Shown: positions 5,513 through 54,776, counted from the stretch's first letter. The stretch: DNA of 64,000 nucleotides from an uncultured bacterium (GCA_903827975.1 CAIKKG010000014.1:52833-116832), one strand, 5' to 3'. Notes: generated from the letters alone by a model not told the origin. A program made the numbers and translations.

Positions 5513-6145
5513 CTATGCGAAAAGCTCGTAATCTTTTTTGAAGATGTATAAGGAAATACGGTAAATTCCGAATGCAATAAAGAATGCAGCAAATACATCA
5601 ATTGAGTAGTGGAGGTGTCCTAATAAAACGCTAATGGCCCCAACAAATGTAGAGGCTAAGAAAAACCATCTCCAAAATCCTCTATTCCAATAAACAAGAG
5701 AGAGCATAAATGGTAGGCCAGTGTGTGCTGAGAAAAACAGATCATCTCCCGAACTTACAATACTTAATCCGTCTATTCCGTAACCAGGCGTTCCAGCGAC
5801 TGGTGGTGCTAAGTGCGTTAGAATCATGAAAAATGAACGTACAACCAAAAATAATGAGATACTTTTTAGTACAAAAGGAATGTGTTTCGGCTCATAGATT
5901 AACAGCGATGCCAAAACAACTAAAAATGCCAGTGCTCCATATATGAATATAAAGCTCATATCAACAACTGGAAGGTTGTCTAGGATTATATCTGTCGCAA
6001 CATTGCTAGCACTTATTGATGCATAAATATTTGCATAATAATTAACAAATAAACTTACAAATAATAATAAAAGGCCTACAAGCCCCTGAATGAGAGATTC
6101 TTTTTGAAACCAGAATGTTTTATGCTTATGAACTATATTTTTCAT
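5513..6145 (-). CDS. PAP2_C / sphingomyelin-synthase-like integral membrane phosphotransferase
   Basis: Six hydrophobic segments; motifs SGDDLFFSAHTG (C-G-D-x3-S-G-H-T like) and HLHYSIDVFAAFFIAFGIY (H-Y-T-x-D-V-x3-Y) characteristic of the SMS/PAP2_C branch. Confidence 0.5.
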   Translation of the reverse strand: MKNIVHKHKTFWFQKESLIQGLVGLLLLFVSLFVNYYANIYASISASNVATDIILDNLPVVDMSFIFIYGALAFLVVLASLLIYEPKHIPFVLKSISLFLVVRSFFMILTHLAPPVAGTPGYGIDGLSIVSSGDDLFFSAHTGLPFMLSLVYWNRGFWRWFFLASTFVGAISVLLGHLHYSIDVFAAFFIAFGIYRISLYIFKKDYELFA

Positions 6146-6200
6146 AACTGAAACTTGAAATTAATTATATCACCTACCTATTTTAATTGCACATATTTTT

Positions 6201-6209
6201 TGCTATAAT
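6201..6209 (+). promoter_or_regulatory. Extended -10 promoter (TGcTATAAT) giving a leaderless or near-leaderless peroxiredoxin transcript
   Basis: Perfect TATAAT preceded by TG, ending ~7 nt before the ATG at 6217; no room for an SD. Confidence 0.5.
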
Positions 6210-6216
6210 GCCCTGC

Positions 6217-6780
6217 ATGATTACTATAAATTCACCCGTCCCAGATTTTGAGGCGGATTCATACCAGAACGACGAGATTAGCAAGGTTAAACTCTCTGAT
6301 TACAGAGGAAAGTGGGTCGCGATGATTTTTTATCCAGCTGATTTCACTTTTGTATGTCCAACAGAATTGGAGGATGCTGAGGCGCACTATGACGAGATTA
6401 AAGCATTGGGAGGAGAGGTTATGAGCATTAGTACTGATACTGCATTTGCGCATAAGGCGTGGCATGATTCGTCGCCCGCAATAGGAAAGGTTAGATATCC
6501 TATGTTGGCAGACCCATCTGGAAGTATTTCTAAAATGTTTGGAACATATATTGAGGGCGAGGGATTATCACTCCGAGGAACATTTATTATCGACCCAGAT
6601 GGACTTTTAAAAACCATCGAGATTCACGATAATAGCATCGGTAGAAGTGCGAAAGAGTTGGTAAGAAAGATTCAGGCTGCTAAATTTGTGAAGGAACATG
6701 CAGGAAATGTGTGTCCGGCAAACTGGGAGCCAGGAAAAGACACGTTGAAGCCAGGAGTTGAACTAGTAGGAAAGATATAA
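6217..6780 (+). CDS. Peroxiredoxin, typical 2-Cys AhpC/TSA family
   Basis: FTFVCPTE peroxidatic Cys motif and C-terminal VCPANW resolving Cys; ORF-track start 6187 (TTG) overlaps the promoter, ATG at 6217 (MITINSPVPDFEA) preferred. Confidence 0.9.
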   Translation: MITINSPVPDFEADSYQNDEISKVKLSDYRGKWVAMIFYPADFTFVCPTELEDAEAHYDEIKALGGEVMSISTDTAFAHKAWHDSSPAIGKVRYPMLADPSGSISKMFGTYIEGEGLSLRGTFIIDPDGLLKTIEIHDNSIGRSAKELVRKIQAAKFVKEHAGNVCPANWEPGKDTLKPGVELVGKI

Positions 6781-6787
6781 AAATAGA

Positions 6788-6820
6788 AACCCGCCAATAG
6801 ATACGAATGGCGGGTTTTTA
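6788..6820 (+). terminator. Rho-independent terminator
   Basis: cccgccaat..attggcggg hairpin followed by TTTTT right after the peroxiredoxin stop. Confidence 0.7.
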
Positions 6821-6880
6821 ATTGACTCAAATATTAAACAAAGGCAATATAGTTATAGAACCTATACATAAGGAGATTCC

Positions 6881-7489
6881 ATGTTAATTGAGGTTGAGGG
6901 CATCACTGGTTCGGGTAAAACCACACAGTGCGAAAGAATGAAGAGTATTTTAGAGCATGCAAAGTTTACCGCAACGATTGTAAATGAGCCTGGTATGACA
7001 GAAATGGGCACATTTATTATGAAAGCCATAAAATCCAACACTCCAAGAGATAAGGTTGCTGAATTATTTCTTTCTCTTGCAGTTGAGGCAGAATTGCACT
7101 CACAAATTATCATTCCTGAGCATTCGATACCAGGACATCTAGTTCTTCGTGATGGAGGTAGGGGCTCTTTTATAAGTTATCATTATCTCACTACTCAGTT
7201 TAGTCTTGAGAAATTAACACGCTTATATGATCAGGCTACACTTGGGCATCGTTCAATAATGACTATATTTCTTGATGTTCCACTTGATGTTGCGGCAAAG
7301 CGTATCAAAAATAGACGTAAGGAGTCAAAGTTTGATATGTTACCTCTCGTATTTATACAAAGGCAACGTGATGTATTTATGCATCTTTCTCAAACGCTAC
7401 CAAACTGGGTTGTTGTTGATGGAACTAAACCAGCTATCAATGTTCGAGACCAGATACTTAGTAAAATACAGGATCGTGTGAACGCATAA
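6881..7489 (+). CDS. tmk: Thymidylate kinase-like P-loop nucleotide kinase
   Basis: N-terminal VEGITGSGKTTQ (tmk-type P-loop E-G-x-D/T-G-x-G-K-T-T), ~200 aa. Confidence 0.55.
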   Translation: MLIEVEGITGSGKTTQCERMKSILEHAKFTATIVNEPGMTEMGTFIMKAIKSNTPRDKVAELFLSLAVEAELHSQIIIPEHSIPGHLVLRDGGRGSFISYHYLTTQFSLEKLTRLYDQATLGHRSIMTIFLDVPLDVAAKRIKNRRKESKFDMLPLVFIQRQRDVFMHLSQTLPNWVVVDGTKPAINVRDQILSKIQDRVNA

Positions 7490-7505
7490 AAATATGTTTA
7501 TAATT

Positions 7506-7531
7506 ATGGGGGTCAATAGCCCCCATTTTTT
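7506..7531 (+). terminator. Rho-independent terminator
   Basis: tgggggtcaatagccccca hairpin plus T-run after tmk-like stop. Confidence 0.6.
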
Positions 7532-7543
7532 ATTATATAGTTT

Positions 7544-8146
7544 ATGAAGATTAAATATAAAATAATTGTTGTAATAGCGCTTTCGTTTTTTGTTGGCGTC
7601 TTTTTTCAGACACCTAAAATGGGCGTATTTATAAGTATAAATAAAGAGGAAAGTGAATCTACTACATCCTCAGTAAAATCTTCAGGAGTAAGAATACGTG
7701 CTCATGTTACGCGCGTCATTGATGGTGATACACTAAAAGTATTTATTAATGACCGCAATGATACCGTGCGCTTAATCGGAATCGATAGCCCGGAGATTGT
7801 TGATACTCGAAAACCAGTTCAGTGTTTTGCAAATGAGGCTTCTGCAAAAATGACGGAGTTAGTCTCGGATGCCTCCGTATTTCTCGAGGAGGATGCAACA
7901 CAGGGAGACAGAGATAAGTATGGGCGTCTCTTGAGATTCGTATTTTTAGAGAACGGAAATGATATTGGAGAGTTAATGCTTGAAGGTGGATATGCATTTG
8001 AATATACACACAATAAGGCCTACAAATATACTTCAGAATATAAATCATCCGAAAGTGATGCTAGAAATACAAAAGTTGGTTTATGGAATCAACTAAATTG
8101 TCTCACCAAAATTGTTGGCGGACGATTGGAAACTATATATAAATAA
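7544..8146 (+). CDS. Secreted thermonuclease (staphylococcal nuclease / SNase fold)
   Basis: N-terminal TM/signal anchor; VIDGDTLKV...RLIGIDSPE...YGRLLRFVFLENG...GYAFEY matches SNc catalytic core. Confidence 0.85.
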   Translation: MKIKYKIIVVIALSFFVGVFFQTPKMGVFISINKEESESTTSSVKSSGVRIRAHVTRVIDGDTLKVFINDRNDTVRLIGIDSPEIVDTRKPVQCFANEASAKMTELVSDASVFLEEDATQGDRDKYGRLLRFVFLENGNDIGELMLEGGYAFEYTHNKAYKYTSEYKSSESDARNTKVGLWNQLNCLTKIVGGRLETIYK

Positions 8147-8148
8147 AA

Positions 8149-8172
8149 ACCCGCACAAATTTCTGTGCGGGT
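8149..8172 (-). terminator. Hairpin terminator (T-run on minus strand) for the GC-rich small ORF
   Basis: acccgcacaaatttctgtgcgggt, followed on minus strand by TTTTTATTT. Confidence 0.6.
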
Positions 8173-8179
8173 GAGGAAT

Positions 8180-8395
8180 TTAATCCAGACGAACGGTCTC
8201 CTTAAGGATACCGGCGATAAGTGGAGCCAGTCTACTGGCCTCGCTGGCATCGGCTGAGTGGAGCACGAGTATTGATGACCCCGTCTCCAACTCACCTATT
8301 TTTTTATTGCCACGCCAGATCTCTAGTCTGTCCTCCTCCTTGGCTACTAGGTAGCCGACAGCTTCCAGAAAACTGATAATCTTCCTTTCTCGCAT
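8180..8395 (-). CDS. Small GC-rich hypothetical protein (71 aa from ATG 8395; possible HicA/YcfA-like fold)
   Basis: ORF-track ORF 8180..8440 trimmed to the ATG preceded by AGGAGGtaat; local GC ~50% vs ~35% background; weak C-terminal resemblance to HicA (..VLHSAD..LAPLIAGILKE). Confidence 0.4.
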   Translation of the reverse strand: MRERKIISFLEAVGYLVAKEEDRLEIWRGNKKIGELETGSSILVLHSADASEASRLAPLIAGILKETVRLD

Positions 8396-8504
8396 ATTAC
8401 CTCCTTTCAAGGTAGTTCTAGAATTACATAATTTACTCATTTTGTCAATGAATACTCTAATTTCCTTTTTTTCTTATATATAATGTATGTTGTTGGCTAA
8501 AACA

Positions 8505-8519
8505 CTGATTGACAATCAG
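8505..8519 (+). promoter_or_regulatory. Perfect 15-bp palindrome CTGATTGaCAATCAG overlapping a TTGACA -35 box upstream of the ABC-F gene
   Basis: Seen directly; candidate operator for a dimeric regulator plus -35 element, -10-like CATTAT 17 nt downstream. Confidence 0.4.
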
Positions 8520-8566
8520 CAAAATATTTGTCATTATTGACGTTCTGGCGCAAAACTAATAAACAC

Positions 8567-10018
8567 ATGGCACGCAACGAAGTTATATTACGATTTGATA
8601 AGGTTTCCTTTGAATTTGGACACCATTCCCCCATCCTAGATGAGGTTGATTTTTCAGTTCGCGAGGGAATGAAATTTACGCTTATGGGACAGAATGGCGC
8701 TGGAAAAACAACAATTTTCCAACTGATTACAGGAAGTCTAACTCCTGAGTCTGGAAAGGTTATTATTACTAATGATGCCTCCATCGCTATTGCTCGTCAG
8801 GTAATCCCAAGAGATCAGATGAGTCTTACGGTAAGAGAATTCTTTGAAAAGTGTTTCGATAAAAAAATATATGATATCGACCCTAGAATTGATGAGGTTC
8901 TTGAGGTTGTAAATTTAAATGCTCCACATGAAAGAACCGTCGGTTCTTTTTCAGGAGGTCAGCAAGCAAGGCTTTTACTTGCTTCAGCTCTCATTCAGAA
9001 GCCAGACCTGCTTTTACTTGATGAGCCTACAAATAATCTTGATAAGGCTGGCATCGCCCACCTTACACAGTTTCTTATTGATTATAAGAAGACATGCATA
9101 GTAATTTCTCACGATGCAGACTTTTTGAACGCATTCACACATGGTGTTTTATACTTGGATGTTTTCACAAGGAAAATGGAGCAGTACTCTGGTGACTACA
9201 AGGATGTGGTAGCCGAGATTTCTGCACGTATAGAAAAAGAAAACAGAAAGAATGCTTTACTTGAAAAAGAAATACAAGCAAACAAAGATAAGGTAAACTT
9301 TTTTGCACACAAGGGAGGACAGATGAGGTTGGTTGCAAAGAAAATGAGAGAGAAGGTTGAGGAGATGGAGGCCGCAAAAGTTGATGTGCGTAAGGAGGAT
9401 AAAACAATCCGTCAGTTTTTTATTCCTTCACAGCCAGAGCTAATTGGTGAGATTCTTAATATCTCAACTGTTTCAATATTCAAGGATCACAAACCAACGG
9501 TAAAAAAGGTTAAGATTTCAATGAAGAAGAATCAGCACTTACTCCTCGTAGGAAGAAATGGAATTGGAAAAAGTACTCTTCTTGAGGCATTAACACATAA
9601 AGATAACAAAGGTTCCACAATAGCAGAGGATGTTCGTGTAGGATATTACCGCCAGGATTTCTCAACACTAAATTTCGAGGATACTGTATATAATTCATTA
9701 GCATCTGTTGCTGATAATGTAGGAGAGGAGCAATTACGATCAGCTGCATCCGGATTTCTTATTGATGAGGATATGATGAGGCAGAAGATAGGCTCATTGT
9801 CAGAAGGTCAGAAAGGACTTGTGGCATTCGCACAACTCGTCTTACTAAGGCCTGGACTCTTAATACTTGATGAACCTACAAACCATATTAATTTTCGTCA
9901 TATACCTATAATAGCTAATGCTTTAAATAAGTATGAGGGAGCAATGATATTAGTAAGTCACGTGCCGGAATTTATTGAACAGATTCGTATTGACGAGACA
10001 TTTGATTTAGAAAAATAG
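8567..10018 (+). CDS. ABC-F family ATPase (tandem ABC domains, no TMD; translation-factor type)
   Basis: Two Walker A (GQNGAGKTT, GRNGIGKST) and two signature/Walker B sets (LSGGQQARL...LLLDEPTNNLD; LSEGQKGLV...LILDEPTNHI) with a charged linker; ATG at 8567 preferred over the ORF-track start 8528. Confidence 0.85.
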   Translation: MARNEVILRFDKVSFEFGHHSPILDEVDFSVREGMKFTLMGQNGAGKTTIFQLITGSLTPESGKVIITNDASIAIARQVIPRDQMSLTVREFFEKCFDKKIYDIDPRIDEVLEVVNLNAPHERTVGSFSGGQQARLLLASALIQKPDLLLLDEPTNNLDKAGIAHLTQFLIDYKKTCIVISHDADFLNAFTHGVLYLDVFTRKMEQYSGDYKDVVAEISARIEKENRKNALLEKEIQANKDKVNFFAHKGGQMRLVAKKMREKVEEMEAAKVDVRKEDKTIRQFFIPSQPELIGEILNISTVSIFKDHKPTVKKVKISMKKNQHLLLVGRNGIGKSTLLEALTHKDNKGSTIAEDVRVGYYRQDFSTLNFEDTVYNSLASVADNVGEEQLRSAASGFLIDEDMMRQKIGSLSEGQKGLVAFAQLVLLRPGLLILDEPTNHINFRHIPIIANALNKYEGAMILVSHVPEFIEQIRIDETFDLEK

Positions 10019-10028
10019 AATAAAAATA

Positions 10029-10058
10029 AACCCCGAATTTAATCGGGGTTTATTTTTT
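10029..10058. terminator. Bidirectional hairpin terminator between ABC-F (+) and DEAD-box helicase (-)
   Basis: aaccccgaatttaatcggggtt flanked by A-run and T-run. Confidence 0.7.
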
Positions 10059-11682
10059 ATCTTCCTCCAAATTTTGCTGGCCTAGAACCACGGCTTCTGA
10101 ATCTTGGCGTCTTTCTATCCTGAGATGCTCCTGGAGCGCCGGATGTTCTTGGTGCATAAGATGAGCCAGCCCTTGGTGCTCGTGATGAACCTGATGTTCT
10201 TTGCGCATATCCCGAGCTAGGTGTTCTTGGTGCGTATGATGAACCTGTTCGTGGCGCGTACGATGAGCCAGATGTTCTTGGTCCACTTGAAGTTCTTGGT
10301 GCGTATGATGAACCTGTTCGTGGCGCGTACGATGAGCCAGATGTTCTTGGTGCATAAGACGAACCTGAAGTTCTTGGTGCGTATGATGAACCAGCGTGAG
10401 TTGGTCTTGAAGAAGGTGTTCGTGAGTGAGATGAGTTTGCTCTATCCCTATTCATATGAGGGAACCTTCGTGAAGGCGCCTGACGTCTCTCTTCGCGCTC
10501 AGGTGGAATTCCTGTTTTTACTGAAGGTAATGCTTGAGGTAGCTCAGGCAGTTTTGAAACTGGGAGTGTTGATCTAATAAGTTTTTCAATCGAGCGGATA
10601 TCATCGCGCTGATTTGGGCGGGCAAATGAAATTGCATGACCACTAACACCTGCACGGCCAGTTCGTCCTATGCGGTGAACATAATCCTCTGCATTTTCAG
10701 GAAGGTCATAGTTTATAACAACCTCAATATTACTTACATCAATACCACGAGCTGCAATATCAGTTGCAACAAGAACACGGAACCTACCATTTTTGAACCC
10801 TTCTAATGCTTCACGTCTCTGACCAAGTGAGCGATTCGAGTGAATCTCCGCTGCTGCATGTCCTAAAAAGCGGACAGTTGCTGCAATTCTTTTTGCATTA
10901 TGTTTTGTTCTAGAAAATACGAGGACTGAACCGTTGTATTCCTGCAATAATTTTTCTAAAAGTCTAGCCTTATCCTCCTGTGAAACTATAAATAATTCCT
11001 GAGTTACATCTTTTGCGGTACTACCTGAACGCGCTATTTCAATGCGAACCGGCAATTTCATGTATGTCCTTGCAATTATTACGATTTCCTCAGGCATTGT
11101 TGCTGAGAAAAGCATTGTCTGTCTCTCCTCAGGAATTGAAGAGATAATTTGTTTTAATTGTGGAGCAAAACCCATATCAAGCATTCTGTCTGCTTCATCA
11201 AGCACAAGCATTGAAACCTTATCAAGGTTTATTGTTTTCTGGTCTACATGATCAATCAATCTTCCAGGTGTTCCTATTACAATATCAGGGCGTCGCGCTA
11301 ATGAGCGAAGTTGTCGTGACATTGGCTCACCTCCAATTATTACTGATGTTTTTACACCAAGTTGAAGACCAACTGTATTCAATGACTCTGCAACCTGAAT
11401 AGCAAGTTCACGTGTTGGTACTACAATAAGACCAAGTCCGTTAGCTTTTAAAATTCTCTGTATCATTGGGATACCAAATGCGAGTGTTTTTCCAGTTCCT
11501 GTTTGTGCTACACCCATAACATCCTTTCCTTCCATTGCAATCGGAATAGCCTGTTCTTGAATAGGCGTTGGTTTTGTAAAATTAAGCTTTGCAAGGATTC
11601 CTAGTATTCCTGGAGCAATTCCAAGTCCTTCAAATCCCCTTTCGTTATTTGTCATTCGGGCACTATCATAACACATTGACAA
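10057..11682 (-). CDS. DEAD-box ATP-dependent RNA helicase with repetitive S/Y/R/P-rich C-terminal tail
   Basis: Q-motif, AQTGTGKT, VLDEADRMLDMGF, SAT, HRIGRTGRAG motifs; C-terminus is tandem SGSSYAPRT repeats. Confidence 0.9.
   Translation of the reverse strand: MSMCYDSARMTNNERGFEGLGIAPGILGILAKLNFTKPTPIQEQAIPIAMEGKDVMGVAQTGTGKTLAFGIPMIQRILKANGLGLIVVPTRELAIQVAESLNTVGLQLGVKTSVIIGGEPMSRQLRSLARRPDIVIGTPGRLIDHVDQKTINLDKVSMLVLDEADRMLDMGFAPQLKQIISSIPEERQTMLFSATMPEEIVIIARTYMKLPVRIEIARSGSTAKDVTQELFIVSQEDKARLLEKLLQEYNGSVLVFSRTKHNAKRIAATVRFLGHAAAEIHSNRSLGQRREALEGFKNGRFRVLVATDIAARGIDVSNIEVVINYDLPENAEDYVHRIGRTGRAGVSGHAISFARPNQRDDIRSIEKLIRSTLPVSKLPELPQALPSVKTGIPPEREERRQAPSRRFPHMNRDRANSSHSRTPSSRPTHAGSSYAPRTSGSSYAPRTSGSSYAPRTGSSYAPRTSSGPRTSGSSYAPRTGSSYAPRTPSSGYAQRTSGSSRAPRAGSSYAPRTSGAPGASQDRKTPRFRSRGSRPAKFGGR
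10118..10400. repeat. Coding tandem repeat (27-nt unit, with a ~60-70-nt higher-order duplicate)
   Basis: gttcttggtgcgtatgatgaacctg... repeated >=8 times; creates spurious overlapping ORFs 10050..10355(-) and 10221..10577(+). Confidence 0.85.
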
Positions 11683-40144: not shown

Positions 40145-40183
40145 GTTTTTATTATATCAAACCATTGCTACTGGTAAAAATTA

Positions 40184-41935
40184 TTAGCTCTCAGAAACAA
40201 TACCAAGTCTTGTTGTCCCTACTTTTTCCACCATACCACTAAGTGGAATCACTACATGGAAAGCAGTTCCCTTGTTGAGCTCTGACTGAAACCATATCTC
40301 ACCTTTGGTATGTTCAATCACTGATTTAACCAAATATAGTCCCAATCCTGTACCATCTGTATCCATTTCTTTTACATTGTACGCGCGGAAGAGTTTTCCA
40401 AAAATTTTATCCTTTTGGTCTTCTGGAATACCATAACCATTATCTGATATGGTCAAAGCTAAGCTGACCTCTTTAATTATTTTATTCTCAAACTCATCAC
40501 CTTTTTGCTTCAGAAAAATCTCTATACCGATCTCACCCTTAGGTTGTGTGTATTTTATTGCGTTTGAAACAATATTTTGTATAACTATGCGCATAAGTTC
40601 TAAATCAACTACCACCGAACTAAGATTCTCTGAATATTTTTCGGAGATGTGCTGTTTCTTTTCTTGTATTTGTGGATATAGTCCTTGGATTATCTCTTTA
40701 GAGAGTCTAGGTATATCTACTGTTTCTGGCTTGATAGAAAATGTACCTAGTTCAATACGAGACATATTGAGCAATGCATTAATAAGAGTAATCATTCGCT
40801 GATTGTTTTTATATACCTCATCAAAATATTCTTTTTGTTTTTCATTTAACTCTCCAACCTCTCCCGAAATCAGCATCTCTAAAAACCACTTCATGCTTGT
40901 CGGTGGCGTTCGTAGCTGATGAGAAGCAAGTGAGATAAATTCAGTTTTTGCTCTGTCAATTTCTATTTCTTTTGTAATATCACGGAAAACATCAATCGCT
41001 CCTACTACTTTTCCATCAAGAATGATTGGTCTTGTATTTATTGCAACAGGAAAATGAGTTCCGTCTTTTCTAGCATAAAAAGTAGCAGTAGCAGTAGCAG
41101 TAGCAGTAGCAGTAGCAAGTGTAACCTGCGTTGGTCGTTTCTCTATTGGAATTCTAATTCCGTTTTCATCAAAGGATTGGACAACTTCAAACAAACTTTT
41201 TCCTCTTGCATCGCCGAATTGAAGCCCAAGCATTTCTTCAGCCGCTTTGTTGACCGTAATAATATTTCCACTTTCATCAACCGCAATAACTCCATCCCCA
41301 ATGGATGAGAGCATGGCCTCGTCCTTAGCACTTGCTTCCTCAATATTTTCTATGATTTTTTTAATCCAGGTGACATTAGTAATAATAATTATGAATAATA
41401 CAAAAATTAATAAACCAATACTAATATTTAATCTTATTTGTACAGCAGAGGTTTTTGAACGTATTAATGAACCTAGTATTGTGGCCTGATTTGCCATTTC
41501 AGATCTATGTTCCACCAACTGATTAACTAATTTAACTTCTATCTCATGTGTCTTTTGCGGGTCAGATAATACTGTTGGAAGATTCAAAAAAAGGTCACCA
41601 CCGATTTGTTTTATGGAATTATTATGTTCATCAATTAAACCAACCGATTGAAGTTCATCAGGGGCGACGAAATTTGTCTTCATACTCATAACTAGCACAT
41701 CAATATCTTTAGATGATGAAATCCATTTTTCTCGAGAGGAATCATCTGGATGTAATAGATATGCATCAAGAAGGTTTGCACGCTCGAAGATGTGGGTCCT
41801 AATATCACTAATAATTTCTAGTTTTAAAGTGTTGGCATTAGTTTGTATTACAGTAATAAATATAAATACACCTGCCAGAATCGAGACAATTAAGGAGATA
41901 GCGAAGACAATGCTGATTTTTGTTTTATTTTTCAT
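40184..41935 (-). CDS. Sensor histidine kinase (TM - extracytoplasmic ~150 aa - TM - PAS - HisKA - HATPase_c)
   Basis: 583 aa; H-box SHQLRTPPT; N, G1, G2 boxes; contains in-frame (TA)6 dipeptide run. Confidence 0.9.
   Translation of the reverse strand: MKNKTKISIVFAISLIVSILAGVFIFITVIQTNANTLKLEIISDIRTHIFERANLLDAYLLHPDDSSREKWISSSKDIDVLVMSMKTNFVAPDELQSVGLIDEHNNSIKQIGGDLFLNLPTVLSDPQKTHEIEVKLVNQLVEHRSEMANQATILGSLIRSKTSAVQIRLNISIGLLIFVLFIIIITNVTWIKKIIENIEEASAKDEAMLSSIGDGVIAVDESGNIITVNKAAEEMLGLQFGDARGKSLFEVVQSFDENGIRIPIEKRPTQVTLATATATATATATFYARKDGTHFPVAINTRPIILDGKVVGAIDVFRDITKEIEIDRAKTEFISLASHQLRTPPTSMKWFLEMLISGEVGELNEKQKEYFDEVYKNNQRMITLINALLNMSRIELGTFSIKPETVDIPRLSKEIIQGLYPQIQEKKQHISEKYSENLSSVVVDLELMRIVIQNIVSNAIKYTQPKGEIGIEIFLKQKGDEFENKIIKEVSLALTISDNGYGIPEDQKDKIFGKLFRAYNVKEMDTDGTGLGLYLVKSVIEHTKGEIWFQSELNKGTAFHVVIPLSGMVEKVGTTRLGIVSES
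41081..41116. repeat. Hexanucleotide microsatellite (AGTAGC)x6 inside the histidine-kinase CDS
   Basis: agtagcagtagcagtagcagtagcagtagcagtagc; encodes TATATATATATA in-frame. Confidence 0.9.
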
Positions 41936-42007: not shown

Positions 42008-42084
42008 TGGTGGACCTGACCGGATTCGAACCGGTGACCTCCTCATTGCAAATGAGGCGCTCTAACCAACTGAGCTACAGGCCC
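42008..42084 (-). tRNA. tRNA-Ala (anticodon TGC), CCA encoded
   Basis: GGGCCTGTAGCTCAGTTGGTTAGAGCGCCTCATTTGCAATGAGGAGGTCACCGGTTCGAATCCGGTCAGGTCCACCA with G3:U70 Ala identity pair. Confidence 0.9.
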
Positions 42085-42171
42085 AGAACCCATTTCTTGC
42101 CCCGCTTGCGCTTCGCTTCTTTGGGGTACTGAATTTTGTATTCTCTCATTGACTCGCGAACAAAATTCGTG

Positions 42172-42243
42172 TGGGCGTGGAAGGGATCGAACCTTCGACC
42201 TCTGTCTTATCAGGACAGCGTTCTACCACTGAACTACACGCCC
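42172..42243 (-). tRNA. tRNA-Ile (anticodon GAT)
   Basis: GGGCGTGTAGTTCAGTGGTAGAACGCTGTCCTGATAAGACAGAGGTCGAAGGTTCGATCCCTTCCACGCCCA cloverleaf. Confidence 0.9.
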
Positions 42244-43042: not shown

Positions 43043-43081
43043 TCACTCAAATCTTAGTGTATAATTATCTTATCATATTAA

Positions 43082-46176: not shown

Positions 46177-46306
46177 TGGGTTAGTTTCTGTTCTCGCGTT
46201 GACAATGTAAAAATTCTATGACAATGTAGTTTTAGGTAATTAAAAAACCTCTTCTGTGCGTCGTGCATCATCAGAGAAAATAATACACTTAAACCAAGGA
46301 GGTAAT

Positions 46307-46873
46307 GTGGTTAAAAAGAAGCTGGCGCTCAGGCTCCTCAAGAAGAAAGTCGACTCACTTTTGGTGCGGGAGGAGAAGAAAGAAAAGGTAATGGAACAAC
46401 CCCCAATTGCACTCATGATTCCAGAAAAACTTCTGGTTTCTCAGTGCGACGGGGCGGAGACCTGCCTTCAGAGCGGACTCTTCTTCCCAATCAAAAATAA
46501 AGATGCGAAGGATGTCATGCATCTTGATTCCGCAGTAAACAAGCCGACAACAGCCGCAAAGGTCCGCGTCTACGAACTCAAACGTGATGCAACCTTCGGC
46601 CAGATGTTCAAGCACCTTAGGAATAATCCTCGCAAAATGTGTTTCACAGAGGCACAGATCTGCACCTTCATCCGTGAGAATAAACACGTTCTCACGAGCT
46701 GTGATGCAACATTCTTCCCGTTCGCCCTCAAAAGCGGAAAGGTGGCAGTTCTGCACGTCACCTACTACCCAGAGATTTCGGAGGACCAGTTCTGTATGTA
46801 CACATACCCTATTTGGAATCTCAGGCCATGGAATACGAAATTTAAATTCCATCTTGTTGTAATGTCTAAGTAA
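46307..46873 (+). CDS. Hypothetical protein, GC-rich islet, paralog of 49546..50067 (unknown Cys/His-containing family)
   Basis: GTG start 4 nt after AAGGAGG (ORF-track ATG 46256 lies upstream of the SD); ~50% GC; K-rich N-terminus; shares KRDATFGQMFKHL/TKHATTQEIMKFV, ..SC.., ..V.HV.YYP/..NVHSGYWTP blocks with protein at 49546. Confidence 0.55.
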   Translation: MVKKKLALRLLKKKVDSLLVREEKKEKVMEQPPIALMIPEKLLVSQCDGAETCLQSGLFFPIKNKDAKDVMHLDSAVNKPTTAAKVRVYELKRDATFGQMFKHLRNNPRKMCFTEAQICTFIRENKHVLTSCDATFFPFALKSGKVAVLHVTYYPEISEDQFCMYTYPIWNLRPWNTKFKFHLVVMSK

Positions 46874-48021: not shown

Positions 48022-48783
48022 TTATTTTGTTAAAACCTCGCATCCGCCTTCTGTTATTGCAATTGTATGTTCAAAATGAGCACTAAGACTTCTATCTTTT
48101 GTTTCATAGCTTCCATCACGAGATAAAACCGCATACTTCGATCCTACTGAGAACATTGGCTCGATTGCGAGCACAAGTCCAGGCACAAGTTTCATGCCCT
48201 CACCCCTATTCCCATAGTTAAAAACACTAGGATCCTCATGTAGTTCAAAGCCCACTCCATGCCCTGTAAGCCCCTGAATTACGCTAAAATTGGCCTTTTT
48301 AGCGGTGTTTTCGATAGCCCAGCCAATATCTCCCAAGTACCCACCAGGCACACATTCCTTGATTGATTTCTCTAGTGCGAGCTCTGTTGTCTTTATAAGC
48401 AGTTTTGCTTCGTCTGTGATTCTACCTATCCCGATTGTCATAGCTGCATCAGTTATTCTCCCCTTATAAGTTACACCGAGGTCAATCGAAAGAATATCAC
48501 CATTTTTTAAAACATACTTCCCTGGGATTCCGTGAACAATTGTTTCATTTACTGAGGCACAAAGAGCCGCTGGGTACGGCTTATTTGCGCCCTCTGGCGT
48601 GTAGCCCAAAAACGTGGGCTCACCACCAGCCTCACTTATAAGTTTTCGTGCAAGTTTATCAAGTGTTGAAAGTTGAATACCTTCTTTTGCAATTAATGCG
48701 ATTTCACTTAATGTGTTTGCTAAAATTTTCCCCGAGACCCGCATTAGTTTTATGTCGGCCTCAGTTTTTAAACGTATCTTCAT
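48022..48783 (-). CDS. map: Methionine aminopeptidase type I
   Basis: Pita-bread fold with metal ligands (D..D..H..E..E pattern: ..SIDLGV.., ..HG.G...HE..). Confidence 0.95.
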   Translation of the reverse strand: MKIRLKTEADIKLMRVSGKILANTLSEIALIAKEGIQLSTLDKLARKLISEAGGEPTFLGYTPEGANKPYPAALCASVNETIVHGIPGKYVLKNGDILSIDLGVTYKGRITDAAMTIGIGRITDEAKLLIKTTELALEKSIKECVPGGYLGDIGWAIENTAKKANFSVIQGLTGHGVGFELHEDPSVFNYGNRGEGMKLVPGLVLAIEPMFSVGSKYAVLSRDGSYETKDRSLSAHFEHTIAITEGGCEVLTK

Positions 48784-48787
48784 CTTA

Positions 48788-49468
48788 TTATCCGAGCTTC
48801 AATGCTTTAATGATTTTTTCTGAAACTTTATATGGCAACGATTCTCCGTCCAATTTTTTAATTGTGAATCCTTTCTTTTTCATTTCTGAAACAATTGGGT
48901 ATGTTCTCTCTCTATATTCCTTTAGGCGAACCTTAATCACCTCAGGATTATCTAATGAGCGCGTTCTCATAGTGCCGGCACATAGCGCACAATGTGGAAG
49001 TTTTGCACTTTCCAATTTAGGAAGTCCGCACTGTGAGCAGACTACTCGATGACTGTTTCTTTTTATCGAGGTTGAGTCTTCGACATTAAGTAAAACAACA
49101 GAAATATTTTCCTTGCCAAATGATTTAATAAGAGACTCGGTTAGGCCCTTCGTCTTGCCTCCGCCGAATGCCTCAAACATTGTTCTTGGGGAACCACTAA
49201 AAACTAAATTATATCCTGCTTTCGCGATTCTTTCAGACTCTTCTCTAGTAATTTTTAAAACCCACTCTGGTGAGCATAATATTCCTGAATCAAAATTTGC
49301 TTTTTCTCTTTTTAAAATTGGATCTGTTTTTGCCTTTGGCGAACGAAAAAGACTCTCAAGATATCGCCCCGTATCGAGATGTATAAAATTAAATTTTCTC
49401 GCTAACAAATCCGCCTGCGTACCCTTCCCAGAACCCGGAGGTCCATAAATAATTACAGCTTTTGACAT
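48788..49468 (-). CDS. adk: Adenylate kinase (long form with zinc-binding LID: CSQCG...CALCAG)
   Basis: GPPGSGKGTQ P-loop, LID domain with four Cys. Confidence 0.9.
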   Translation of the reverse strand: MSKAVIIYGPPGSGKGTQADLLARKFNFIHLDTGRYLESLFRSPKAKTDPILKREKANFDSGILCSPEWVLKITREESERIAKAGYNLVFSGSPRTMFEAFGGGKTKGLTESLIKSFGKENISVVLLNVEDSTSIKRNSHRVVCSQCGLPKLESAKLPHCALCAGTMRTRSLDNPEVIKVRLKEYRERTYPIVSEMKKKGFTIKKLDGESLPYKVSEKIIKALKLG

Positions 49469-49521
49469 ATATTTTATTATACATTTCGATTTTAAAAATC
49501 GCTAATTTAAAAAAATAAAAA

Positions 49522-49540
49522 CCCCCGCTTATGGCGGGGG
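49522..49540 (-). terminator. Rho-independent terminator for the GC-rich gene 49546..50067
   Basis: cccccgcttatggcggggg followed on minus strand by TTTTTATTTTTTT. Confidence 0.75.
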
Positions 49541-49545
49541 TATAC

Positions 49546-50067
49546 TTAGAACGAGACCATGATTATCGTTCCGGGCGTCCAATACCCGGAGTGGACATTG
49601 AGGGCCCAGGTGCCATCAATGCACCTGCCGGCAGCCAAAATGCTCTCCTTCTTCTCATCTCCAGATTGGAGGGAGACTAGCGTCTTGCAACTCGGCATCA
49701 CATTACTGCAATACCGGATTGCGATTGCGAGCCCTTGTGGCCCGAGAAGCGTTGGCCGGCCAGGAAGGCCAGCCACGAACTTCATGATTTCCTGCGTTGT
49801 AGCATGTTTCGTTGCGTAGAAAAAGGCAAGGCGCCTTTTCCCGGGCAGAGGGTGGATATTCCCAGCCTCTAATGACTCGAAGGTGCGTTCGAAGAGGTGG
49901 ATACTGACCTTCCCACCACGACGAAGGTAATCGAAGTGGTTCACCACGGATGTGGGTACCCTCACCATGCTCTCGGTGAGGAAGGGAAACGGCTCCTGAC
50001 CCTGCATTAGGTCACGGATCCGCCCTTGGAATGCCCGATAGGGCTTCGTCGTATTCTGATTCAGCAT
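49546..50067 (-). CDS. Hypothetical protein, GC-rich islet (~55-57% GC), paralog of 46307..46873
   Basis: 173 aa; AAGGAG SD 5 nt upstream of ATG; inserted between secY and adk; no recognised domain. Confidence 0.55.
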   Translation of the reverse strand: MLNQNTTKPYRAFQGRIRDLMQGQEPFPFLTESMVRVPTSVVNHFDYLRRGGKVSIHLFERTFESLEAGNIHPLPGKRRLAFFYATKHATTQEIMKFVAGLPGRPTLLGPQGLAIAIRYCSNVMPSCKTLVSLQSGDEKKESILAAGRCIDGTWALNVHSGYWTPGTIIMVSF

Positions 50068-50159
50068 GTTAACTCCTTTGCGGACAGTGCCGCGGTTAAG
50101 TTGCTGGAATTATTGTGTCATAGAATAGACATAATGTCAATCATAATGCATAAAAATAA

Positions 50160-50185
50160 AAGGGGCGGGCAATCTGCCCACCCCA
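50160..50185 (-). terminator. Hairpin terminator for the 83-aa membrane ORF
   Basis: ggggcgggcaatctgcccacccc, T-run on minus strand. Confidence 0.55.
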
Positions 50186-50186
50186 C

Positions 50187-50438
50187 TTACCTACCAAGTA
50201 TTAAATAAAGCATTCCGAGTATTGCTAAGGCCCCAGTAATAAGAGGGTACTTTGCGAGTGTTTCCGCTAAGTACCCTCCCAACCACCTAAGGAACGAAGT
50301 GAGGAGTCCCCTCACCTTACTCCCAAGCAGACCAAGAACCTTCTTTGCAGAAGGCCCACCCCACAGATAAAATGGGGCAACCAGGATGGCCATTAGTATG
50401 GCCATCATTAGAACTATACTATTAAGCTCCTTCATCAT
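50187..50438 (-). CDS. Small hypothetical membrane protein (83 aa), part of the secY-adk insertion
   Basis: Two to three TM helices, elevated GC (~47%). Confidence 0.4.
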   Translation of the reverse strand: MMKELNSIVLMMAILMAILVAPFYLWGGPSAKKVLGLLGSKVRGLLTSFLRWLGGYLAETLAKYPLITGALAILGMLYLILGR

Positions 50439-50514
50439 AGCCCCTTATGCGGAAGTATCCGCTCAAATTTCTATAAATAGATTAGCATTTAACACTTACT
50501 TTGTCAATAAAAAA

Positions 50515-50532
50515 CCCCTGCGAAAGCAGGGG
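50515..50532 (-). terminator. Rho-independent terminator after secY
   Basis: cccctgcgaaagcagggg with T-run on the minus strand. Confidence 0.75.
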
Positions 50533-50546
50533 TTTTATCTTACTTA

Positions 50547-51833: not shown

Positions 51834-52256
51834 TTACTTAACTGTTCCGCCGGCTTTCTCTATTTTTGCTTTTGCTCCAGCAGAAATCTCTACGCCGTCA
51901 ATTGTTATAGGTTTTTTTATCTCTCCTCCGCTTAAAATCTTTACGCGAATGTGAGTTCCTTTCGTCAATCCCTTCTCGGCAATTATGCTCTTTGAAACGA
52001 TTCCGTCAGGAAATACTTTTGTGAGTTCACCAACATTAAATATTAGTGCAACCTCTCTCTTTGGCTTATTTTTGACACCGCGCAACTTTGGAATGCGCAT
52101 CAAAAGATCGCGCTCTGCAGGGCGAATTCTGTGACCAGCACGTGACTTCTGTCCTTTTTGTCCGTGTCCTGATGTCGTTCCACGCTTGCCACCACGGCCT
52201 ACGCGCTTCTGACTCTTCCTTATTGCATTTTTCGGTTTTAATTCGTTAAGCTGCAT
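51834..52256 (-). CDS. rplO: 50S ribosomal protein L15
   Basis: KRVGRGGKRGTTSGHGQKGQKSR... L15 N-terminus. Confidence 0.9.
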   Translation of the reverse strand: MQLNELKPKNAIRKSQKRVGRGGKRGTTSGHGQKGQKSRAGHRIRPAERDLLMRIPKLRGVKNKPKREVALIFNVGELTKVFPDGIVSKSIIAEKGLTKGTHIRVKILSGGEIKKPITIDGVEISAGAKAKIEKAGGTVK

Positions 52257-54263: not shown

Positions 54264-54776
54264 TTACTTTTCAGAGTTTTTTAATGGTACCCCAAGCGAC
54301 CTATATAAAGCAATTGCTGCTTCACGATCTTTCTCCTTCGGAACAACGGTCACCTGTATTCCAAATGACACGCGTGATTTTTCAGGATTGATTTCAGGAA
54401 ACACCGTCTGCTCACGGAAACCGAAGTTCAAATTACCGTCATGATCAACATTTGAAATTTCAAGTCCGCGGAAATCTTTTACGCGAGGTAATACAACATT
54501 TACAACTTTTGATAAAAAGTCATTCATACGTTGCTTTCTTAGCGTTACTTGTAGTCCAACAACCTCACCTTCACGAATCTTAAATGTTGAGATTGATTTT
54601 TTTGCTTTACGCTCAGCTGGCTTCTGTCCGGTTATTATAGAAAGTTCCTTCTCAATTTCAGGTAATATCTTATCGTCAAACTGTGCCTGATTGCGAAGTT
54701 TACCCACGCCGGAGTTTACGACGAGTTTTGCAAGTACTGTTTGAGTATGTTTATTTGTTTTCGTTTCCTTTTTCAT
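54264..54776 (-). CDS. rplE: 50S ribosomal protein L5
   Basis: L5 family, 170 aa, conserved position between L24 and S14. Confidence 0.9.

Follow-up and report, generated by a model that had tools for sequence, protein, structure and literature searches.

In E. coli or B. subtilis, spc-secY-adk-map is co-transcribed as an operon, and at capsule or O-antigen loci homologous recombination via conserved flanks replaces allelic cassettes. Roughly half of the genes in organisms of the Candidate Phyla Radiation (CPR) are without an assigned function. The C-type-lectin-like (CLec) fold is the usual scaffold of the variable proteins of diversity-generating retroelements (DGRs), and the CPR has been mentioned in connection with DGRs (PMC5006420, PMC11661182). 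The locus described here is the secY-adk junction of an uncultured CPR bacterium with a tiny genome; the junction carries two genes, orf83 and orf173, and lies within a 64-kb (64,000-nt) stretch of DNA, hereafter the window. Like operon-boundary hotspots and capsule or O-antigen loci, this site has conserved housekeeping flanks that bracket lineage-specific cargo, and like loci of allelic cassette replacement it combines deeply divergent alleles with near-identical backgrounds and with breakpoints inside or beside the gene. Unlike at capsule and O-antigen loci, the unit that appears to be replaced is no more than one block of ~450 nt within a small gene, and the site interrupts spc-secY-adk-map, one long conserved gene string in most bacteria. 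In contrast to the DGR variable proteins Mtd and TvpA (2y3c), the variation in orf173 is N-terminal and takes the form of discrete, apparently recombinant haplotypes with saturated synonymous sites.

The features of the junction are given below in the order of transcription; the promoters and terminators were identified by their match to a consensus and not by mapping of transcript ends.

51834-52256, minus strand: L15
50547-51818, minus strand: secY, last gene of the ribosomal-protein/spc cluster (Pfam SecY, E 2.9e-99)
50511-50536, minus strand: secY terminator, a hairpin with a T-run behind it; strains differ in the orientation of its 4-nt loop (50522-50525)
50479-50507, minus strand: putative orf83 promoter-like site, read from the sequence (TTGACA, 17 nt, TAATCT; weak -10)
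50187-50438, minus strand: orf83, 83 aa, small and hydrophobic, two membrane helices predicted
50243-50278, minus strand: hairpin within orf83, 14-bp stem; its 8-nt loop is inverted between strains
50162-50184, minus strand: orf83 terminator, 10-bp stem with 8 GC pairs, T-run
50112-50140, minus strand: orf173 promoter-like site, TTGACA, 17 nt, TG-n-CACAAT (10/12 matches, extended -10, sigma-70-like)
50073-50078, minus strand: AAGGAG Shine-Dalgarno (SD) sequence, 5 nt before the orf173 ATG
49546-50067, minus strand: orf173, 173 aa; predicted alpha/beta subdomain at the N-terminus (~1-73), then a predicted C-type-lectin-like domain (~74-173)
49636-50084, minus strand: hyper-divergent allelic block relative to strain L001, comprising the SD region and codons 1-144
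49521-49541, minus strand: orf173 terminator, 8-bp stem with 7 GC pairs, T-run, conserved in relatives
49476-49483, minus strand: TGTATAAT extended -10 box, 7 nt before the adk ATG, read from the sequence as a putative leaderless-type adk promoter
48788-49468, minus strand: adk (Pfam ADK, E 1.3e-19)
48022-48783, minus strand: map, next after adk
next after map, minus strand: queuosine-salvage gene

The two ORFs between secY and adk, the SD sequence ahead of orf173 and the separate terminator hairpin of each ORF (50184-50162 for orf83 and 49541-49521 for orf173) agree with what an earlier note on this DNA had described. The orf83 promoter-like site adjoins the secY terminator and was missed by a promoter scan, its -10 matching at 3/6 positions.

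We examined how this junction is organized in related genomes. A SecY search returned relatives from 80 species; every one belongs to the Patescibacteria/CPR, and most carry the label Paceibacterota or Jorgensenbacteria. Among the 66 related species with adk downstream of secY, the gap between the two genes ranged from -11 to 4705 nt with a median of ~120 nt, and it exceeded 300 nt in 22 of them. The cargo was unrelated from species to species and, judged by eye from N-terminal translations without a family scan, includes products that resemble histidine phosphatase, HIT, NUDIX, SDR and methyltransferase proteins, as well as small membrane proteins; in 25 relatives, no junction cargo other than the copy in L004 belonged to the orf173 superfamily. 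A hairpin equivalent to the secY terminator was present 3' of secY in all relatives examined, those carrying the orf173 family gene included, and the TGTATAAT box was found ahead of adk in all but one (L091). At the consensus level, the window and all relatives examined but one thus have both signals, unlike a co-transcribed spc-secY-adk-map arrangement with neither terminator nor promoter between secY and adk. The terminator behind secY and the separate TGTATAAT box of adk lead us to read the junction in this clade as an operon boundary and a variable site, not the highly constrained locus of the earlier note. Moreover, since accessory genes are common at this boundary in the CPR, an insert there is by itself no evidence of recent transfer. 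Two other junctions were conspicuous: that of L043 (41% GC) holds a 1.27-kb, 50%-GC insert (7273-8539) with two ~160-aa hydrophobic-looking ORFs, which repeats the pattern of a GC-rich insert with unrelated genes, and that of L028 holds a 4.7-kb multi-gene insert (5954-10658).

The close family of orf173 consisted of ten proteins (P0001-P0010) recovered by word-indexed and exhaustive profile searches. All seven close homologs with readable context lie between secY and adk, and P0001 does likewise by gene calls alone (residents: P0001, P0002, P0003 in L004, and P0006, P0007, P0008, P0009 and P0010). Homologs occupied the junction in L004, L084-L088, L090, L091 and L095, lineages whose SecY is 87-92% and whose Adk is 77-87% identical to that of the window. 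As all close relatives found share the secY-adk junction across distinct lineages, orf173 is, on this synteny, an old resident of the site and no recent arrival. Most relatives also had the same cassette plan, running from the secY terminator through a TTGACA promoter, a 5'UTR with AAGGAGG, the gene and its terminator to the adk promoter. AAGGAG(G) was kept in L001 and also preceded the family gene in L004, L088 and L090. Of six relatives with a readable secY-to-gene spacer, five had a TTGACA at a position after the secY terminator like that of the orf83 promoter-like site, and five had a TTGACA...TGnCAAAxT site analogous to that of orf173. The family protein was 47-59% identical where Adk was 80-87% identical, 35-40% identical between the window clade and other lineages, and 73% identical within the species, where Adk was 99% identical. 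By these comparisons the orf173 family is evolving several times faster than its housekeeping neighbours.

The composition of orf173 is strongly atypical. The 400-nt bin 49601-50000 had the highest GC content (55.7%) among the 160 bins of the window, and orf173 as a whole (GC 0.550) was the strongest GC outlier of the window when measured against sliding 522-nt windows (mean 0.393, sd 0.033; z = 4.7). Its GC3 was 0.66 compared to a mean of 0.345 (sd 0.069) for 76 ORFs. Thus, the GC anomaly that the earlier note had reported was borne out at 55% GC for orf173, although against a background of ~39% and not the ~35% given there. orf83 was mildly raised (GC 0.46, GC3 0.48). The atypical composition ended exactly at the limits of orf173, whose promoter, UTR and terminator look native, and the structure of its 5'UTR was no different from that of shuffled sequences (z = -0.82). 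Furthermore, the family gene exceeded its flanks in GC3 by +5 to +20 points in every lineage examined. Side observations on composition concern two other places in the window. The second-highest GC stretch (10101-10622; 0.494, z = 3.0) lies inside a 541-aa minus-strand ORF (10057-11682), and the second-highest GC3 (0.55) belongs to a 205-aa ORFan on the plus strand (46256-46873). In relatives this ORFan keeps its place, with topA on one side and the queuosine-salvage gene or map on the other, although its N-terminus varies (167-246 aa), and it matched nothing in Pfam, PHROG, NCBIfam or PADLOC; its candidacy as an orf173 paralog was unsupported (hhalign E 0.07-0.15).

The translation signal of orf173 also stands apart from the genome around it. 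An SD-like 4-mer occurred upstream of 10 of the 69 window ORFs of at least 100 aa, against a random expectation of 15.5%, and this chance frequency means that native genes mostly lack an SD, as the earlier note had held. A strong AAGGAG/GGAGG was present in only ~5 window genes, including orf173 and rplE (54264-54776). In many native genes, adk included, a TATAAT box lies 7-10 nt ahead of the ATG (for example 40145-40170 and 43060-43081). This placement suggests widespread leaderless mRNAs and translation, and the genome appears to be essentially Shine-Dalgarno-free.

We then compared the window with strain L001; L003, at 100% identity, is this strain again and therefore no independent observation. 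The window and L001 were 98.2% identical over 18.2 kb, with 341 differences, and their SecY proteins were 100% identical. Of these differences, 144 fell within orf173, which makes up 2.9% of the compared length, and ~150 fell in the block 49636-50084; the last 30 codons of orf173 and its terminator were identical. The reading frame of orf173 was intact despite ~35% nucleotide divergence, with three indels of 3 nt each, and substitutions were distributed 74:38:22 over codon positions 3:1:2. Over codons 1-130, pS was 0.71, dS ~2.2 and dN/dS 0.11. The codon-structured substitutions, in-frame indels and low dN/dS show that orf173 encodes a protein under purifying selection. In the flanks, dS was 0.033 for secY, 0.029 for map and 0.136 for adk, the changes in adk being clustered at 48850-48977 (19 substitutions in 128 nt, the rest of the gene ~99% identical). 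This patch looks like a second short recombination tract beside the junction, and a small recombination-like patch was also seen at the N-terminus of orf83.

Both orf173 alleles are GC-rich, with GC3 of 0.66 and 0.70 compared to 0.30-0.35 in the flanks. Long residence cannot explain this doubled GC3, because alleles with saturated dS sit in ~99%-identical backgrounds. Alleles that had diverged to saturation in a 39%-GC host should have lost their GC3 excess, and recent independent replacement is therefore favoured. Together, these sequence patterns point to a coding block recently imported by recombination, that is, to horizontal exchange by allele replacement at an occupied site. Outside this species, no protein more than ~40% identical to the window allele was found (5.8 billion proteins, 1.84 billion representatives, JGI contigs), and the JGI metagenome contigs, searched for a donor, contained none and yielded only a single, partial copy of the window-type allele. 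The GC3 excess of the family gene in every lineage means that GC-biased gene conversion, codon selection or another intrinsic force could contribute, so that import is not strictly required. Given this smaller, family-wide excess and that no donor was found, our confidence in allele import is moderate.

The homology between the window and L001 stops at window position 41861, just past tRNA-Ala and tRNA-Ile (42008-42243), so that the strain-variable region there adjoins tRNA genes; beyond this end, L001 (18215-20513) has a DUF1330 gene, an epimerase and a reverse transcriptase (RT) with the motif QGxxxSP.

orf83 has a different history from orf173. Its four variants (83-100% identity) all lie at the secY-adk junction, and no homologs were detected in the 80 related species, only within the species of the window. 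Its distribution makes orf83 look like a genuine later addition confined to this species. Two hairpin loops in this part of the locus were inverted between the window and L001. The 4-nt loop of the secY terminator (50522-50525) reads TTTC in one and GAAA in the other, an exact reverse complement, and the 8-nt loop of the hairpin within orf83 (50257-50264) is reverse-complemented with the frame kept, which changes YLAETL to HFASVS; both loop orientations were found in the population.

Neither orf173 nor orf83 could be assigned to a described family, as searches of Pfam (E <= 0.1 for orf173), PHROGs, NCBIfam and PADLOC gave no match for either. An exhaustive profile search with orf173 recovered 153 cluster representatives at E <= 1e-3, mostly of 160-250 aa, unnamed and metagenomic, which share the motifs VP..Y.H..QL, L.PGK.Y.VKIF, LVGAQGLSL and VSFD. 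One remote member, in another CPR genome, lies between an aminoacyl-tRNA synthetase gene and mraZ. Ten orf173 homologs contained no relevant Pfam domain, and no lectin-type family was found among 97 superfamily members. A sequence-profile search of the PDB with orf173 gave noise only (E = 0.2), and a search of the viral structures in BFVD gave nothing significant, the best match being a C-type lectin (E 0.33).

The structure model of the orf173 protein was confident and contains the CTLD core topology (strand, two helices, C-terminal antiparallel strand set); the C-terminal ~100 residues are thus confidently predicted to adopt a C-type-lectin-like fold. In fold it resembles the Bdellovibrio Bd2740 fibre tip (8oks) and the C-terminal domain of Legionella Lcl (8q4e), and also intimin/invasin D-domains and FGE-type domains (SUMF2, PvdO, EgtB). 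It differs from bacterial CLec/CTLD domains in that sequence identity to them is 5-15%, in that it matches none of the described families (Pfam Lectin_C, other Pfam lectin families, FGE-sulfatase, DUF1566 and others), and in that it has no signal peptide or anchoring domain. The canonical Ca2+ lectin features are absent from the 173-aa sequence, which has no EPN/QPD, WND or WIGL motifs. Additional to these domains, orf173 has the N-terminal alpha/beta subdomain of ~70 residues, which is conserved in ~150 remote relatives. Cys127, Cys149 and His159 are invariant within the orf173 subfamily. The N-terminus has no hydrophobic signal and the protein appears to be cytoplasmic. Because it has neither a signal peptide nor a canonical Ca2+/sugar motif, we call orf173 a lectin-like-fold protein and not a lectin; it is probably a binding module of an undescribed family. 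Judged from fold similarity (modest Z, 5-15% sequence identity), its role is most likely in ligand binding or recognition.

How orf173 and orf83 came to lie between secY and adk can be explained in several ways. The earlier note had argued for recent horizontal acquisition, as a single insertion of a foreign two-gene cassette into an invariant secY-adk junction. The strong GC and GC3 anomaly, an SD-led gene with its own terminator in an SD-less genome, the terminator of orf83 and the limitation of orf83 to this species are in line with such an event. However, at least six other lineages, their SecY 87-92% identical, have an orf173 homolog at this very position, one third of the related species vary at the junction, and the promoter/UTR/terminator architecture recurs in most relatives examined. 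The insert consists of the two ORFs alone, neither an integrase nor a transposase gene is present, flanking repeats and mobile-element termini were absent apart from terminator modules, and no phage or plasmid relatives of it were found in IMG/VR, INPHARED or PLSDB. Of the properties of genomic islands, atypical composition was found, and absence from relatives at the same site was found for orf83 only. Synteny has thus largely refuted this reading, which we regard as improbable. Related genomes carrying the same gene at this junction had been named in the earlier note as evidence against it, and for the most part this is what was found; of recent acquisition there remains, for orf173, an old resident gene, the probable recent import of its coding block as an allele and, for orf83, an apparent later addition. 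Less likely still is a two-gene toxin-antitoxin or anti-phage defence module, which a small membrane protein beside a fast-evolving cytoplasmic protein would fit, as would the allelic hypervariation typical of conflict genes and the position of the pair at a variable hotspot. Against it, PADLOC (E <= 0.1), PHROG, Pfam and NCBIfam were silent on both ORFs, the genes appear to be separately transcribed, each with its own terminator, and in every other lineage the orf173 homolog has no orf83 beside it. An artefact, be it a chimera of the assembly or an ORF that arose by chance over a structured, GC-rich RNA, comes to mind because GC-rich islands in AT-rich genomes are often RNAs and because GC-rich DNA yields chance long ORFs on both strands, several antisense ORFs being present here. 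This reading is effectively refuted: the two-gene layout is repeated in at least ten independently assembled contigs from several samples, which rules out the chimeric assembly that the earlier note had considered, Rfam at the gathering threshold gave three tRNAs only and none in the region, and the codon-structured substitutions, in-frame indels, confident protein model and 153 homologs all speak for a real gene.

Two further readings concern the origin of the divergent block itself. That orf173 is a DGR variable protein and the block its hypermutated variable region is suggested by the C-type-lectin-like fold, the usual scaffold of DGR targets, and by the RT that lies ~9 kb away in L001. We consider this hardly credible. 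The QGxxxSP motif of that RT is one we take to be of non-DGR type, tblastn with the L001 RT found no RT in the 64-kb window, and word-7 blastn found no template repeat of the gene in the window or L001, with terminator-like matches only; in this orf173 differs from Mtd and TvpA. Furthermore, the substitutions between the strains are of all 12 types, with third-position bias and 3-nt indels, and not adenine-specific, and the C-terminus of orf173, where DGR variable regions lie, is its most conserved part. A more serious alternative dispenses with import altogether: the two alleles would be an ancient balanced polymorphism whose high GC3 is upheld either by selection on codons or mRNA or, at a recombination hotspot, by GC-biased gene conversion. 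This would account for the GC3 enrichment of the family gene over its flanks in every lineage, for the additional recombination-like patches nearby (adk 48850-48977 and the orf83 N-terminus), for a composition anomaly confined to the ORF and for the empty donor search. However, the GC3 excess is +31 to +37 points here and only +5 to +20 in relatives, a divergence ~70x the genomic background needs very strong and long-lasting balancing selection, and the dN/dS of 0.11 gives no sign of diversifying selection. We consider an ancient balanced polymorphism unlikely, while giving it appreciable weight.

The explanation that we favour, and hold with moderate confidence, combines a landing site of the clade, an ancestral orf173 unit, allele replacement from GC-richer relatives and the later arrival of orf83. 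The Paceibacteria/Jorgensenbacteria-like CPR clade would use the secY-adk boundary as a place where accessory genes arrive and are kept, and orf173 would be the ancestral occupant of this site in a genus-level group, as a transcription unit of its own in which a TTGACA promoter and a 5'UTR of ~35-60 nt with AAGGAG(G) precede the gene and a terminator follows it. In the species of the window, the block from the ribosome-binding site to codon 144 exists in near-identical genomes as two or more deeply diverged, GC-rich alleles, which would have come in by repeated homologous replacement from unsampled GC-richer relatives with the gene at the same site. The exchange would have run from these putative donors into this species, with one crossover in the conserved 3' end of orf173 and the other near the ribosome-binding site. 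orf83 would have been added later, in this species only, together with its own promoter and terminator. The protein itself is most likely a ligand-binding or recognition module in which the N-terminal part changes from lineage to lineage and the lectin-like core at the C-terminus is kept. Of this picture, the reality of the gene, its synteny, the consensus-level signals for separate transcription, the fold, the two alleles and the lack of a DGR in the sequence available are supported directly; the donor, the direction of exchange and the binding role are inferred.

These findings bear on the biology of the CPR in several ways. The 'universal' secY-adk linkage is, in the CPR, an operon boundary that often holds accessory genes, and orf173 defines an unannotated protein superfamily of ~150 cluster representatives with no Pfam model and a confident prediction of a lectin-like fold. 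The clean, deep allelic dimorphism in ~99%-identical genomes (dS ~2 compared to 0.03) means that metagenomes already at hand can serve as a direct test for recombination and gene flow among uncultivated CPR lineages. Three leads are worthwhile: the dimorphism of the alleles, the new fold family and a gene led by an SD in a genome that otherwise lacks them. A bolder proposition, which we put forward as speculative and rather doubtful, is that orf173 belongs to a CPR-wide, undescribed superfamily of recognition proteins which are small, intracellular and of lectin fold, and whose specificity part is diversified by lineage-to-lineage exchange of allelic cassettes at a fixed site and not by a retroelement. 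If so, recombination would here play the part that the retroelement has in DGR diversification, possibly in the recognition of phages or host cells, and the Shine-Dalgarno leader in an SD-less, largely leaderless genome would provide orf173 with a separate channel of translational control.
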